Virus record (IMG/VR): IMGVR_UViG_2548876700_000016
Source of the DNA: a virus
Lineage: Duplodnaviria > Heunggongvirae > Uroviricota > Caudoviricetes
Direction: 5' to 3' (one strand)
DNA length: 6,933 bases
The translations under genes were made by a program, and so were the position numbers. Positions 646 through 4,553 of the stretch are shown piece after piece. The notes beneath the pieces were generated by a model that searched no databases, was not told the origin of the DNA, and was given only the letters and a program-made list of their open reading frames with translations. The first letter of the stretch is position 1. Every line of letters starts with the position of its first letter.

Positions 646-863
646 AACCCCCCCTCCCCATTTTCACAATCAGCAACAAGAATATTTTTAGCGTCATTCA
701 GCGACCGCGTGGCGGTGTATCGGATGCATTCCAGGGCGAACAATGTGTATTCTTCCCGTTCTTCCTTTTGTGCAAGCCCTGCTGTGCATTCAATATCAAT
801 AAGCGCATGCATCAGCGTAGTGAGCGCGGCGGCGGCTGCGTCCGGCGTGGTTTTATTGTGCAT
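618..863 (-). CDS. Hypothetical small protein (81 aa from the internal Met; the track ORF extends to 893)
   Basis: ATG at 863-861 with GGGGGA 5 nt upstream; this start overlaps the last codons of the 853-1320 gene by 8 nt. The same stop/SD/ATG arrangement is repeated at 1313-1320 for the paralogous upstream gene. The first Met of the track ORF (893) has no SD. Confidence 0.35.
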   Translation of the reverse strand: MHNKTTPDAAAAALTTLMHALIDIECTAGLAQKEEREEYTLFALECIRYTATRSLNDAKNILVADCENGEGGLCVMIVLIP

Positions 864-1320
864 AGGTTTCCCCCTGACGAATACGGGCGACAAAAATCAG
901 ATGTGCGTGCGGCAGCTGGGCGCGGGCTTCGCGTTCTGTTGCTGCCGTGACGGTAAAGAGTGAGGTTTGTTTTTCCTGGCACTGCATAAAGCGCCAGACA
1001 AAATAAGGGCGTGCGGATACAGCCATGTGAAAGGCTCCCAGATGAATTTTAAGGAGTCTCGCTACTACGCTGTCAAACATGGTGGCGAGACGTAACAGGG
1101 TTGACAGACTGGTCATCTGGAAACCAGCGAGCACAAAGGCTCCCCCGTTACGCCCCGCCATAATGCGGGTATGGGTAGGTTTACGGACACAAAAAAACCG
1201 CTTATCGGATGTGGGCGGCTGTCCGCCAGATGTATTCAGGCTGTCAAACCCGGTCGCCATGTGGGCGACGGGGGAAGCATACAGCCCCGTGATAATTTTT
1301 TGCAAGCGGTTTTTACGCAT
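853..1320 (-). CDS. Hypothetical protein (155 aa) whose C-terminal 57 aa are paralogous to the 67-aa protein at 1313-1516; may alternatively be expressed as a standalone 57-aa protein from the internal ATG at 1026
   Basis: Continuous ORF. ATG at 1320-1318 overlaps the upstream gene's stop by 8 nt with a GGGG SD. The internal ATG at 1026-1024 has its own GGGAG SD about 8 nt upstream. The C-terminal segment ...YFVWRFMQ...ATEREARAQ...LIFVARIRQG aligns with ...YIWRFIAL...ATSEQEARQQ...VFAARIRQG of the 1313-1516 protein, with synonymous codon differences (cgc/cgt, gcc/gca) that support this frame. Confidence 0.45.
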   Translation of the reverse strand: MRKNRLQKIITGLYASPVAHMATGFDSLNTSGGQPPTSDKRFFCVRKPTHTRIMAGRNGGAFVLAGFQMTSLSTLLRLATMFDSVVARLLKIHLGAFHMAVSARPYFVWRFMQCQEKQTSLFTVTAATEREARAQLPHAHLIFVARIRQGETYAQ

Positions 1321-1597: not shown

Positions 1598-1612
1598 TGT
1601 ACCTACTGATAT

Positions 1613-1656
1613 TGTACGTACGTAACAGCAATGATAATAGGAGTTACGTACGTACA
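1613..1656. promoter_or_regulatory. Perfect 14-bp inverted repeat, candidate operator for the Arc-like repressor
   Basis: TGTACGTACGTAAC (1613-1626) and GTTACGTACGTACA (1643-1656), separated by 16 bp. The spacer contains the AGGAG Shine-Dalgarno (1639-1643) and the right arm abuts the ATG at 1656. A candidate minus-strand promoter (TACAAT / TTATCA) overlaps the arms. Confidence 0.55.
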
Positions 1657-1847
1657 TGTCAACATTAAAGCGCGATAAATCGCCACGCGGTGAGGGATGG
1701 TCTCCAACCTTCCAAATCAGAATCAGTAAAGAGCTACGCCAACAAGTAAATGAGGCGGCAACTTCTGACGGTCTAACCCTTGGTAACTGGTTTAAAGAAT
1801 TAGCTAGGGCAGAACTAAAGCGGCGCGGCATAGAGCCAAAAGGTTGA
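1656..1847 (+). CDS. Arc/Mnt-family ribbon-helix-helix DNA-binding protein (63 aa)
   Basis: PTFQIRISKELRQQVNEAATSDGLTLGNWFKELARAELKRRG aligns position by position with the P22 Arc core PQFNLRWPREVLDLVRKVAEENGRSVNSEIYQRVMESFKKEG (beta-strand F-x-L/I-R, then two helices). AGGAG SD at 1639-1643, 12 nt from the ATG. Confidence 0.75.
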   Translation: MSTLKRDKSPRGEGWSPTFQIRISKELRQQVNEAATSDGLTLGNWFKELARAELKRRGIEPKG

Positions 1848-1868
1848 ATTTCAGAAGGAGATAAAATA

Positions 1869-2021
1869 ATGAACTGGCTGTTACATACCCTCCCAGGTCG
1901 CATTCTCATTGCACTAATTATTTTATGGATTTTGTACCAATTCGGTTTTTTCGATTCGCTTTGGAAGCCTGACTGTTCCGTTAACCCTGGCGATGTACTG
2001 AAAGGCTGTAAAAATGGCTGA
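1869..2021 (+). CDS. Small single-pass membrane peptide (50 aa), below the ORF-track size cutoff
   Basis: AAGGAG (1855-1860) 8 nt upstream of ATG at 1869. Translates to MNWLLHTLPGRILIALIILWILYQFGFFDSLWKPDCSVNPGDVLKGCKNG, with a hydrophobic helix ILIALIILWILYQFGFF and a short tail with two Cys. Stop TGA at 2019-2021. Starts 21 nt after the Arc-like gene's stop. Confidence 0.55.
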   Translation: MNWLLHTLPGRILIALIILWILYQFGFFDSLWKPDCSVNPGDVLKGCKNG

Positions 2022-2080: not shown

Positions 2081-2330
2081 GCAGCTCTCTACGTTTTTCG
2101 TCGGAACCTCTGAACCTAAGCAGTGTTGATGTTCAGGAGAACCCGAATACTGTTCGTGTTCGTTGCTCGCCAATTCTCGCGTTTCGCGATAATCAAAATG
2201 ATTCAATGGGTTGAGATGTCCGTACGTTAAACGTACGCGGTTAATTTGTACGTGCGAATTTCGTCGGCTCAAATTCTGCGCAACCCTGATTGAGTTATGC
2301 AAATAGCACGCGGCTAACTCACAAGGATTT

Positions 2331-2376: not shown

Positions 2377-3087
2377 TCAGCGAATCTCCAACACTGACGA
2401 TGAAGTGATCAGGCTGGCGAACGCATCCATACGGCGGGCAACCTCACGCACCGCATCGCCTGGACTCATGTCATTACGCACCGCCTCATTAAAGGCCGCC
2501 TGTTCGATTTTCTGCATCACTACCAACAGCCCCAATTGCTGTTCGTCTGCGGTACCGCGTTCACCATCAGACAAACCAGCCACGCGGTTTTCAGCGCGGG
2601 CCAGATTGATGTAATGGTGCCGTTGTGCGCCCAGAGCTTTTAATCTGTCGCGGCTTTCGTGATAGCCAGGCAGGTACTCACGGCGGATAGGTTCTGCGGC
2701 GCGGCGCTTAGTGAATGCCTTCGTAACATCCAGTTTGAACTGGTTAATACGCTCAGGATCACGCCCTCGGGTGATACGCAGCAGATAGTCGAGCTGCGGC
2801 TCATTCAGCAGATAACTAATCTCAGGACGCCCACGCTTTCGGCCGGATTTTCCCGATTTCAAATCGGTTAATTCCTTGAGTGACTGACGAGGCAGTGATC
2901 CCAGCTCGCGCAATCTGCTCTGGTGCGATTTAATCGTCGCGCTTAGGCTTTCATGTTGTATTCCGGCTCGCTCTGAAATAACGCGGGAATCGATACGCGG
3001 CTCCGATTTGTGATTAATTAAAATATCGCTCTGGCTGGCTTCAGGGTGAGCGAATCCCTGCCCGTTGAGGGCATTAATCTTTTTCAT
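2377..3087 (-). CDS. Rha-family phage regulatory protein (236 aa)
   Basis: N-terminal region IDSRVISERAGIQHESLSATIKSHQSRLRELG matches the Rha-domain signature D-S-R-x-I-x-E-x-x-G-x-x-H-x-x-L-x-x-x-I as I recall it. Starts 20 nt after the alpA-like stop, so probably co-transcribed. C-terminal region not recognised. Confidence 0.6.
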   Translation of the reverse strand: MKKINALNGQGFAHPEASQSDILINHKSEPRIDSRVISERAGIQHESLSATIKSHQSRLRELGSLPRQSLKELTDLKSGKSGRKRGRPEISYLLNEPQLDYLLRITRGRDPERINQFKLDVTKAFTKRRAAEPIRREYLPGYHESRDRLKALGAQRHHYINLARAENRVAGLSDGERGTADEQQLGLLVVMQKIEQAAFNEAVRNDMSPGDAVREVARRMDAFASLITSSSVLEIR

Positions 3088-3107: not shown

Positions 3108-3392
3108 TTAAGCAGATTTGCGGCTGTATGGGTTATTGACGTTCTCTACTACAGGCGGATTACGAACCCACCAGAGCACATCAGAAAGAAGCCAGGCACA
3201 GCTATTGCGGCCGAAGTGGCAGCGTGGCGGAAATCGTCCTTGCTGCTCCATTTTCCAACGGCTGGAACGGGAAAGGCTGGTGATCTCGCTACATTCTTCT
3301 TCACGGATTCGACGATCGAACTTAAAGCCGTACTCTTCTAAAAGGGTGCGGCGCTGTTCAGGATTAGGCGGGGTAAAAATGGGGTTTTGCAT
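3108..3392 (-). CDS. alpA: AlpA-family (Xis/MerR-like HTH) prophage transcriptional regulator (94 aa from the internal Met; the track ORF extends to 3434)
   Basis: EITSLSRSSRWKMEQQGRFPPRCHFGRNSCAWLLSDVLWWV follows the AlpA pattern (T-G/S-L-S-R-S-T-I-Y...G-x-F-P-x-P...W...E-V/I-x-x-W). GGAGG lies 4 nt upstream of the ATG at 3392-3390; the first Met of the track ORF (3434) has no SD. Confidence 0.75.
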   Translation of the reverse strand: MQNPIFTPPNPEQRRTLLEEYGFKFDRRIREEECSEITSLSRSSRWKMEQQGRFPPRCHFGRNSCAWLLSDVLWWVRNPPVVENVNNPYSRKSA

Positions 3393-3472
3393 GTTGCCTC
3401 CACTGTTTCTAAGTTTGTGGAGGCTAGTTTGCAACCGTTAACACTGGATAGAAATACAGTTGTAAGCATAGA

Positions 3473-3530: not shown

Positions 3531-4460
3531 TTACTGTGTTCTTTCGCTCGGCCTCTTATGCGCATTGTTTAATATTGCTGCTATTTTCGTTTCTGTTTTT
3601 ATTGGCAATTCACCATTGATGAACCAGTCAGGTCTGGCGATCAACTCACGGGCCCAGGCAGAATAGTTAATAGTTCCATCTGTTTTTCTGCAACTCTCAT
3701 TAAAAGCATTTTGCTGCTCTTCTTTGAAGCGCATGGCTACCATTAAAATTTGCTCTCGATTTCTTGCATGTCTTTCAGCAGAATGATGAACAATTTCATT
3801 GCCATTCATCTTATGAGGTTCTACAAATTCAATATCATCTGTCAGCGTGAAATAATCGCCACCACAGTCAAGGAGCCGCCTTATATCCTGAGCAGTAATC
3901 CACAAATCGTTTATAGAGATTTTATTTTTGAATACTTGATCGTCTTCTTCATCATAATCGCTATCTTCGCCAACCATTAAAAGCTGTACGGCGGGATTAT
4001 CAGTTTCTGGATGGCACGGGGTTAATTCAAAACCACTTAGGGCATACTCTCCAAAATTTTGTAGCTCTTCTAATCCGCTCCAAAGACGCCACAACCCATA
4101 AGCCTTACCAATAGAACTGAAACACCCATTTTCTGTATCTTGACCAAATAAAGGCACGTGAATCGTTTCTTCCGTTTCCTCATTGTAATCGCATCTGTAG
4201 AGATGAAGCCTGGAAAATTCAGTAATATTGTTTCCCATCATGGATGTGGTGGAGTTTGCCTTTCTGGTATCGAACCAGTCGCATGCAGATTTGCTGTCAG
4301 TTCTCATATATAAAACAGCGCGAGCATCAAACAAATTTAGACATAAAGATATTTTTTTAGTAACACCTAAATTAATCAGGTCGCTAATCTCACAACCCAG
4401 CAATCTCGACGCACGTTCAATATTGCAGTATTGAAAAGGTATTTTAATGTCGTTAGCCAT
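3531..4460 (-). CDS. Hypothetical protein (309 aa), AT-rich orphan cargo gene of unknown function
   Basis: ORF-track ORF with GAGGG SD 7 nt upstream of ATG at 4460-4458. Visibly more AT-rich than the flanking int and alpA/rha genes. N-terminal stretch IERASRLLGCEISDLINLG looks HTH-like; central acidic stretch EDSDYDEEDD. No P-loop, nuclease or other catalytic motif recognised by eye. Confidence 0.7.
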   Translation of the reverse strand: MANDIKIPFQYCNIERASRLLGCEISDLINLGVTKKISLCLNLFDARAVLYMRTDSKSACDWFDTRKANSTTSMMGNNITEFSRLHLYRCDYNEETEETIHVPLFGQDTENGCFSSIGKAYGLWRLWSGLEELQNFGEYALSGFELTPCHPETDNPAVQLLMVGEDSDYDEEDDQVFKNKISINDLWITAQDIRRLLDCGGDYFTLTDDIEFVEPHKMNGNEIVHHSAERHARNREQILMVAMRFKEEQQNAFNESCRKTDGTINYSAWARELIARPDWFINGELPIKTETKIAAILNNAHKRPSERTQ

Positions 4461-4497
4461 TGCGCTGCCCTCAACGCCCCTAAATTAATTTGCGAGC

Positions 4498-4522
4498 CAA
4501 GCGGGTAGGGTTTCCCGCTTTT
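4498..4522. other. Short hairpin in the int/orphan intergenic region, weak terminator candidate
   Basis: AAGCGGG (4499-4505) / CCCGCTT (4514-4520) with an 8-nt loop. The plus-strand tail is TTTTCGG; the minus-strand tail has no T-run. Confidence 0.25.
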
Positions 4523-4553
4523 CGGTTGGCCGACCTAGGCCCGCAATATCAGT

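Follow-up and report, generated by a model that had tools for sequence, protein, structure and literature searches.

A Predicted Divergent Control Switch with an Arc-like Protein and a Cargo Slot in a PICI-type Phage Satellite of Escherichia coli

Results

We analyzed a 6,933-nucleotide (nt) stretch of viral DNA (IMG/VR record IMGVR_UViG_2548876700_000016; Caudoviricetes), referred to throughout as the window, and in particular its positions 1598-2021, where an earlier note made from the sequence alone had described a small ribbon-helix-helix (RHH) gene, a gene for a 50-amino acid (aa) membrane peptide directly behind it, and a perfect inverted repeat in front of both. Judged by its gene content, the window belongs to a phage satellite from Escherichia coli, inserted beside yhdJ, of the type of the phage-inducible chromosomal islands (PICIs) and their capsid-forming counterparts (cf-PICIs). 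From comparison with related loci we predict, with a probability of roughly 0.65, that the region is the divergent control switch of this island, in which the RHH protein would be the repressor and the peptide would be cargo.

In the proposed switch, RHH dimers would bind two copies of a palindromic operator (core GTACGTAC), one (O2) in the spacer and the other (O1) at the start site of a strong leftward promoter, and would thereby occlude it and keep the operon of Icd-like, C4 and replication genes shut while the island is integrated. The protein would probably limit its own synthesis too, because O1 also overlaps the likely weak promoter of the RHH gene. Allelic operator types may act as immunity or incompatibility groups, and the peptide would be made during quiescence of the island, because its cassette lies directly behind the repressor gene. 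The features on which this proposal draws are collected in Table 1.

Table 1. Features of the window and their positions.
Feature	Position	Strand	Description
RHH gene, predicted repressor	1656-1847	plus	63-aa Arc-like ribbon-helix-helix protein; beta-strand PTFQIRI, helices 25-37 and 42-56, tail ELKRRGIEPKG
Operator O1, distal (predicted)	1613-1626	none	TGTACGTACGTAAC, core GTACGTAC; about +1 to +14 of the minus-strand promoter
Operator O2, proximal (predicted)	1643-1656	none	GTTACGTACGTACA; occupies the minus-strand promoter between -35 and -10; adjoins the RHH start codon
Near-consensus sigma-70 promoter	1634-1662	minus	-35 TTGACA (1662-1657), 17-nt spacer, -10 TATTAT (1639-1634)
Putative weak RHH promoter	1587-1615	plus	-35 TTGCTT (1587-1592), 17 nt, TG-extended -10 TGaTATTGT (1607-1615); inferred only
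Terminator-like hairpin with T run	1552-1597	plus	between the icd start and the RHH promoter; -28.4 kcal/mol, z -5.8
Cargo cassette	1849-2022	plus	exactly 174 nt (58 codons); Shine-Dalgarno AAGGAG (1855-1860) and peptide gene
50-aa peptide gene	1869-2021	plus	transmembrane helix at about residues 12-28; tail DSLWKPDCSVNPGDVLKGCKNG with conserved Cys pair
Hairpin after the peptide stop codon	2047-2075	plus	may terminate the RHH-peptide transcript; U tract weak
Secondary related palindrome	2221-2237	none	CGTACGTTAAACGTACG; conserved in L077
Stop-free bridging frame	1313-2377	minus	open 1316-2443, 376 codons; ends at the icd stop codon
Icd-like gene	1313-1516	minus	NF033153, 69.8 bits; annotated by PGAP in L001-L003; first gene after the operator-covered promoter
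C4 a1/b1 targets	1233-1282	minus	Rfam c4-a1b1, 46.8 bits (gathering threshold 46.7)
C4 antisense RNA	1078-1165	minus	Rfam C4, 72.6 bits (gathering threshold 45)
Rha-like gene	2377-3087	minus	upstream context of the RHH/icd region
alpA	3108-3434	minus	upstream context of the RHH/icd region
P4-type integrase gene		minus	on the same strand as the genes for a 309-aa protein, alpA and the Rha-like protein

Operator and Beta-Strand Co-variation

Indirect but strong evidence for the predicted binding is the co-variation between the protein and its presumptive sites. A pattern search over GTDB genomes returned 65 Enterobacterales loci (individual loci are identified below by L numbers), and sorting their upstream regions by the sequence of the RHH beta-strand gave approximately 11 groups. 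Every group has a distinct pair of palindromic sites, yet their positions do not change: one site adjoins the start codon and the other lies about 34 bp upstream (Table 2). Constant across the groups are the C-terminal helix of the RHH protein, its tail ELKRRGIEPKG and, on the minus strand, a TTGACA hexamer with its -10 element. Such co-variation is the pattern expected of a repressor/operator immunity region, and on this comparative basis it favors the earlier proposal that the repeats are the operator of the RHH protein.

Table 2. RHH beta-strand groups and the palindromic sites found with them.
Beta-strand	Predicted operator
PTFQIRI	GTACGTAC
PQYQMRL / PPYQMRL	GGTAATTACC
PPFQFRL	GTGTAATTACAC
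DQYQIRL	TTGTAATTACAA
PAFQIRM	GTGTACCT / AGGTACAC
PPFHMRI	GGTGTACACC
PMLPIRI	GTATATGCC / GGCATATAC
PQFKMRI	AGGTGGCCAC
PIFSVRL	GTATGGACC / GGTCCATAC
KQIALRV	CACCTG..TGATTAC / GTAATCAGGTG
KQIAFRV	GTGTCAGACAC

In the window the two sites form the 14-bp perfect inverted repeat reported before; its arms are 100% complementary and 16 nt apart, and they do bracket the Shine-Dalgarno (SD) sequence of the RHH gene (AGGAG, 1639-1643, in the spacer) and reach its ATG, the last base of the right arm being the A at 1656. Each arm is itself palindromic (GTACGTAC), and the inverted repeat amounts to two copies of one palindromic site with a center-to-center distance of 34 bp; in several other allele groups a palindrome is repeated there in direct orientation. 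Allowing at most one mismatch, GTACGTAC has nine matches against 1.4 expected (0/200 shuffles) and GTACGTACGT has six against 0.18. Within approximately 14 kb of the element the operator motif is absent elsewhere, save for a weaker site at 2218.

The leftward promoter matches the sigma-70 consensus at 11 of 12 positions and is the single strong match in a promoter scan; it reads into the Icd-like gene and then into C4 and the DUF4222/primase replication genes. Its -35 element overlaps the start codon of the RHH gene, ATGTCAAC being the reverse complement of GTTGACAT, and the exact TTGACA over the start codon (ATGTCAAC) is kept in nearly all loci outside Pantoea, where a -10 element follows at 16-18 nt and promoter scores range from 9 to 11 of 12. 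Placed in the spacer and at +1 of this promoter, the operators occupy classic repressing positions. O1 overlaps, in addition, the putative -10 element or start of the RHH promoter; promoter-like elements for the RHH gene occur just upstream of O1 in some loci, where support for them is weak and automated detection noisy.

The earlier note had interpreted the repeat as the usual arrangement for RHH autoregulation. The operator itself is borne out, but the main feature under the repeats is the promoter of the opposite strand, leaving autoregulation as at most half of the arrangement. It is unlikely that the RHH protein is a pure autoregulator, controlling only its own RHH-cargo transcript while the opposite-strand promoter is incidental or escapes regulation by it. 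Autoregulation is common among RHH proteins, as established for Arc, CopG and antitoxins, and would suit a right arm that ends at the ATG and an SD sequence between the arms; it leaves unaccounted for an invariant TTGACA that confines the opening codons to ATG/GTG-TCA-AC in about 11 groups that otherwise diverge, a -10 element 16-18 nt from that hexamer in each group, the positions of the operators on the leftward promoter, and a plus-strand promoter that is much weaker.

The possibility that the repeat acts mainly as an mRNA hairpin sequestering the RHH start codon, as a translational control or processing site and not a DNA operator, is quite improbable. As RNA the region does form a stable fold (-21.3 kcal/mol, z -5.7), its loop containing the SD sequence and its stem having the AUG at the base, but the predicted start of RHH transcription, at about 1622, falls within the left arm, and a transcript from there would lack part of the stem. 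The occurrence of the sites as direct repeats in several allele groups, and a site sequence that tracks the DNA-reading beta-strand of the protein, likewise argue for a DNA operator.

Several further elements surround the predicted operators. The secondary palindrome occurs marginally more often than by chance (three matches against 0.39 expected; 4/200 shuffles), and the region around it is 98.8% identical in L001, where the palindrome is unchanged although the RHH allele is not the same. It may serve as an additional operator, as a roadblock or as a terminator, or it may be a relic. Near it (window positions 2217-2256) lies TTGTACGTGCG; both it and CGTACGTTAAACGTACG resemble the RHH operator core, and both are situated between the cargo and rha. 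The terminator-like hairpin at 1552-1597, a region that matches no Rfam family, is conserved across most loci, though without a plus-strand gene upstream, and an extended -10-like sequence, TGGTATGAT (1501-1509), could give rise to an antisense transcript, about 80 nt long, over the ribosome-binding site of icd. Behind the peptide gene, the stretch 2018-2100 folds with -26.1 kcal/mol (z -3.3).

The RHH Protein

The 63-aa open reading frame (ORF) of the RHH gene exists as described earlier. With the single sequence, family matches remain below threshold (HicB, 18.2 bits against a Pfam cutoff of 21; Arc, 12.4; YlcI/YnfO, 20.7; in PHROG, 'Arc-like repressor'). A profile built from 35 homologs and searched against the PDB, in turn, ranks Arc, SvtR, HP0222, AmrZ and Mnt at the top, all of them RHH proteins; it aligns to Arc residues 2-49, placing PTFQIRI on PQFNLRW and T18, Q20 and R22 on Q9, N11 and R13 of Arc. 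The AlphaFold (AF2) model (mean pLDDT 75.6; about 85-90 in the helices) contains the two helices listed in Table 1 after an extended N-terminal segment, and its top Foldseek matches are all Arc (TM-score on the target 0.72-0.85, root mean square deviation 1.3-1.6 Å), followed by PutA, AmrZ, CopG and ParG. The E-values for the fold are weak (0.05-1) owing to the tiny domain; the ranking is unanimous. With Arc first in both searches, and with a beta-strand and two helices in about 45 residues and alternating polar residues in the strand, the Arc-like RHH identity proposed in the earlier note holds.

The RHH frame is under purifying selection (ratio of nonsynonymous to synonymous differences, pN/pS, 0.13-0.35), and 879 of 5,426 E. 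coli genomes carry the region. In several genomes PGAP names the product 'HicB family antitoxin'. We considered and rejected this assignment: the protein has only 63 aa, lacks the N-terminal (RNase H-like) domain of HicB and has no adjacent hicA-like ORF, and the sub-threshold Pfam match covers the RHH part only.

The Membrane Peptide and the Cargo Slot

The peptide ORF is likewise present as claimed, beginning 21 nt past the RHH ORF with AAGGAG 8 nt before its ATG, and the transmembrane (TM) helix ascribed to it is predicted and the Cys-containing tail apparent: residues 12-28 are hydrophobic (Kyte-Doolittle peak 2.46), and a Cys pair lies in the C-terminal tail. As had been stated, it is not Hok, with no match in Pfam, NCBIfam, PHROG or PADLOC and no hok/sok match in Rfam at E up to 1; a tblastn search against 50,697 phage records gave none either. 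A word-indexed protein search found two clusters of the peptide and an exhaustive phmmer search a third, at 53% identity, so that the family comprises three clusters in 15 billion proteins (the window sequence at 100%, and variants at 84% and 53%). All members lie directly behind an RHH gene of the window's family, in the same island type, and together they accompany five RHH alleles.

Conserved in the peptide family are a length of 49-50 aa, the SD sequence and the motif FDSL..PDCS.NPGD..K.C. Between the window and L078, pS is 0.97 and pN 0.28; between the window and L004, dN/dS is 0.34, the last 17 codons contain three synonymous and no nonsynonymous changes, and homology stops at the peptide stop codon. 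The peptide frame is also more constrained than the frame antisense to it. These comparisons indicate that the peptide gene is real, selected and TM-encoding, and that it is placed for co-transcription with the RHH gene.

The peptide is optional cargo and not an obligate partner of the RHH protein, because it is carried by an exact, optional cassette and is present in one of 5,426 complete E. coli genomes. Compared with L077, the closest E. coli island, which occupies the same yhdJ site, the window contains an exact 174-nt insertion between the RHH stop codon and CAGGGTTACTC. At this point, other loci with the RHH allele of the window vary: L002 and L077 lack a second gene, L003 has one for a 58-aa basic protein, and L073 has one for a SWIM protein.

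This distribution bears directly on the suggestion, made in the earlier note, of a toxin-regulator pair, in which the RHH protein would be an antitoxin or dedicated regulator and the membrane peptide a toxin. The order of the genes, RHH first and small membrane protein second, does resemble that of type II toxin-antitoxin operons, and the sub-threshold HicB match and the PGAP label point the same way; but co-occurrence largely refutes this reading, which we consider very unlikely, since the RHH region is found in 879 E. coli genomes and the peptide in one, the cassette is absent from the closest island, one RHH allele goes with varied second genes or none, and the peptide stands behind five different alleles. 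The conserved C-terminal tail of the RHH protein, moreover, is present with or without the peptide, and the protein has neither the toxin-binding, RNase H-like domain of HicB nor a hicA neighbor.

Across the loci the slot behind the RHH gene is empty or holds the 58-aa basic protein, the SWIM-domain protein, membrane proteins of 123-166 aa, or a second RHH gene; elsewhere it holds peptides of 45-53 aa with an N-terminal TM segment and the tail C-x2-N-x2-D-x-[LM]-x3-4-C. ORFs of this last kind (L053 4154-4315, L058 4154-4297, L070 4145-4297 and L062 approximately 4175-4312) begin at or just past the RHH stop codon and share the Cys-tail pattern with the window peptide, and some also have a lipobox-like ...KSC. 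Distant kinship or functional analogy may link them. The second RHH gene, in L040 (4175-4360), is divergent (61 aa, ending ...QEIEPKG) and lies directly behind the first. The SWIM zinc-finger protein of E. coli FDAARGOS_943 (L073, 3376-3735; 119 aa) weakly matches the PADLOC candidate defense model PDC-S62 (E 2e-4). Family searches on the other slot cargo identified the SWIM domain only, the rest being insignificant.

The peptide is predicted to cross the inner membrane once, probably with its N terminus in and its C terminus out, with a disulfide-bonded periplasmic tail. Our guess as to its role, drawn by analogy with temperate-phage exclusion genes, is that it acts at the envelope on incoming phage (superinfection exclusion); the lysis-related role also raised earlier finds no support.

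The Stop-Free Antisense Frame

Opposite the RHH gene and the cassette runs a minus-strand frame without stop codons, the bridging frame of Table 1. It is the frame of the Icd-like gene and passes antisense over the RHH gene with its operators, over the peptide cassette and over the seemingly non-coding stretch; the first ATG in it and the stop codon of rha overlap as TGATG. In 2,000 shuffles of the 927 nt upstream of icd, the longest ORF averaged 94 ± 22 codons with a maximum of 236, against 309 observed. Of 48 unique loci, 30 keep the bridging frame free of stops over a stretch comprising the RHH gene and a further 140 nt, and none does so for either of the remaining minus frames; mean stop counts are 0.9 against 7.1 and 8.1. 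Across the SWIM cargo gene, where it has 488 codons, and likewise in L002, L077 and L078, the frame is open, running in each case from at or just after the alpA or rha stop codon to the icd stop codon. In the island EcCICFT073 (L076) it is open for 367 codons over unrelated antisense genes, the other frames having 19-28 stops; it is open as well in L001, L004, L051, L053, L058, L063, L070 and L073. Such openness is not intrinsic to this antisense register, which shows 2.8 stops per 100 codons in ten ordinary genes of these elements used as controls.

We give very little credence to the reading that this ORF is a real gene and the RHH and peptide ORFs chance overprints; its 376 open codons, its ATG on the rha stop codon and its openness in 30 of 48 loci are set against a translation that shows no conservation and, outside its C-terminal Icd-like domain, no family match, a confidently predicted RHH fold, a lower pN/pS for the RHH frame in 14 of 15 pairs, and a peptide frame more constrained than its antisense. 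As a protein, the long ORF was accordingly discarded.

A different view of the frame, which we advance tentatively and regard as rather doubtful, is that the RHH-cargo cassette lies antisense in a frame kept translatable and linking alpA/rha, upstream and activated by AlpA, to the icd and replication genes, in an operon with two routes of expression. By the first, a local consensus promoter would be held shut by allele-specific RHH repressors that define the immunity or incompatibility types of Gram-negative PICIs; by the second, a read-through transcript driven by AlpA would escape Rho termination, ribosomes covering every base, and would also run over the repressor gene and silence it. The frame would, speculatively, be kept translatable so that AlpA-driven transcripts could cross the opposite-strand cassette without Rho termination, and cargo would enter the slot only as in-frame, stop-free insertions. 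The peptide cassette, at exactly 58 codons, fits the idea of in-frame insertion.

The Satellite and Its Neighboring Genes

Gram-negative PICIs are recognized by co-oriented int and alpA followed by pri/rep, cf-PICIs by additional capsid, protease and portal genes, with no tail or lysis genes. The window contains int and alpA. A metagenome contig (L005) in which the RHH gene, the intergenic region and the peptide gene are all identical to the window runs on into DUF4222, a D5-type primase, a single-stranded DNA-binding protein (SSB), PerC, capsid, protease and portal genes, as a capsid-forming PICI does. The resulting gene order, int-alpA-rha / RHH / icd...DUF4222-primase-SSB-PerC-capsid-protease-portal, is found with the same layout in the E. 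coli loci L001-L003, L073, L074 and L077 and in EcCICFT073.

The minus-strand satellite operon also contains a module like the immI region of phage P1, comprising the C4 RNA, its a1/b1 targets and two Icd-like domains; as in P1-type immI, C4 RNA and a1/b1 targets lie upstream of an icd-like gene, here outside positions 1598-2021. The second Icd-like domain ends a 155-codon ORF (853-1320, minus strand) that reads straight across the C4 RNA gene. C4 RNA was undetected in 16 sister loci at the gathering threshold, and it is therefore not part of the core switch, representing an add-on in this island.

Directly downstream of the integrase gene (4477-4545, minus strand) there is an int-alpA RNA (Rfam RF02996, 61.2 bits), which is present too in L008, L022 and L070. 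Between int and alpA, a 309-aa ORF (3531-4460, minus strand) matches only PHROG 7144 (unknown function, E 7e-40), with no match in Pfam, NCBIfam or PADLOC; its location is typical for accessory or defense cargo of satellites.

Discussion

Comparison with Known Systems

The RHH protein is most likely the repressor of a divergent switch, comparable by analogy to Mnt/Arc of phage P22 or to Stl of the Staphylococcus aureus pathogenicity islands (SaPIs). In the immI region of P22, where Mnt and Arc act at the divergent, overlapping promoters Pant and Pmnt, a small RHH repressor is divergent from the operon it shuts off and palindromic operators lie inside the core of a strong promoter, as predicted for the window, and the region is likewise part of a secondary immunity system of a mobile element; Arc, moreover, is the best match in sequence and fold. 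The systems differ in that the window protein is only about 20% identical to Arc, that its two palindromic sites are separate and 34 bp apart, whereas P22 has one 21-bp Arc operator and one 17-bp Mnt operator, and that its operon contains Icd-like and replication genes in place of an antirepressor, with no second RHH gene.

With the Stl/Rpr master repressors of the SaPIs, which are Gram-positive PICIs, the region shares the position of its predicted repressor gene, which is divergent from the xis/pri/rep operon and lies on the int side (PMC6092414), and a predicted role in keeping the island quiescent; this analogy is positional. Stl proteins, unlike the window protein, are large helix-turn-helix proteins, and the two are unrelated. 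Derepression by a helper-phage protein has been shown for Stl. Induction of Gram-negative PICIs has been shown to need AlpA.

In gene content the island compares with the Gram-negative prototypes EcCICFT073 (PICI) and EcCIEDL933 (cf-PICI), which likewise have int, alpA, Icd-like, DUF4222, primase, SSB, PerC and capsid genes. In EcCICFT073 (NC_004431, 28243-28853), a 59-aa RHH-like gene of the YlcI/YnfO family and a second ORF of 57 aa (RefSeq) follow alpA and are divergent from the Icd-like gene and leader hairpin that lie next, the same ones as in the window, with two copies of AGGTGTGGCCCAC upstream. The regulator there belongs to a different RHH-like family, with another operator (AGGTGTGGCCCAC) and spacing, and the second ORF encodes a basic protein in place of a membrane peptide.

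Like P1 immI and the CI RNA immunity of P4, the window operon has C4 RNA, a1/b1 targets and Icd-like genes. Those immunity systems depend on the coupling of translation and Rho-dependent termination. In P1 the promoter is under the control of C1 and not of an RHH protein. Repressor-linked exclusion genes of temperate phages include rexAB behind lambda cI and gp15 of HK97, a small membrane superinfection exclusion protein. The window is similar in having a small membrane protein gene directly behind a predicted maintenance repressor, and hence, by analogy, one that would be expressed in the quiescent state; the peptide has no sequence similarity to any of these.

Points Weighing on the Proposed Switch

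Several observations weigh against the proposed switch. A subgroup of loci in Pantoea and Erwinia has the RHH gene without operators or promoter: in L025-L036, L044-L047, L057, L060 and L061, RHH homologs with S.AFQLRIH stand beside an RND efflux adaptor gene and have neither the palindromic operators nor a TTGACA across the start codon, and these copies appear to be stranded remnants or a re-used copy. The RHH gene's own promoter is putative, weak and poorly defined in sequence, and its SD sequence is 12 nt from the ATG. DNA binding and repression by the RHH protein are drawn from comparison throughout, and published work explains the induction of satellites through the activator AlpA, with no need for a repressor (PMC6092414). 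The leftward promoter could also be constitutive, with control exerted later by C4 RNA, although C4 went undetected in the 16 sister loci. As for the peptide, it is very rare and offers neither a known family match nor a direct functional clue, and the charge bias (positive-inside signal) for its topology is weak.

Implications for Gram-Negative PICIs

Published accounts leave room for such a repressor. The founding paper describes Gram-negative PICIs as 'transcribed unidirectionally', and calls it 'unclear' whether they have a global repressor (PMC6092414); the cf-PICI paper makes no mention of a repressor; and a survey from 2026 places 'HicB' and 'YlcI/YnfO' among the accessory genes of satellites and in no other role. 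In open-access text we found no paper assigning these RHH genes a repressor role in PICIs.

Gram-negative PICIs and cf-PICIs are widespread; they transfer genes and interfere with phages, and a small RHH gene, usually mis-annotated as 'HicB antitoxin' or 'hypothetical', would point to their missing repressor. The region provides concrete candidate operators together with a target promoter, and the specificity variants that occur naturally, about 11 in number, could be tested by swaps. The slot behind the RHH gene, which holds a previously unannotated family of small membrane peptides as well as other small proteins, would be expected to be active in the silent island and is thus a place to look for exclusion and defense functions. 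If the stop-free antisense frame is selected for translation, it would represent an unusual way to carry an opposite-strand gene in a Rho-sensitive operon.

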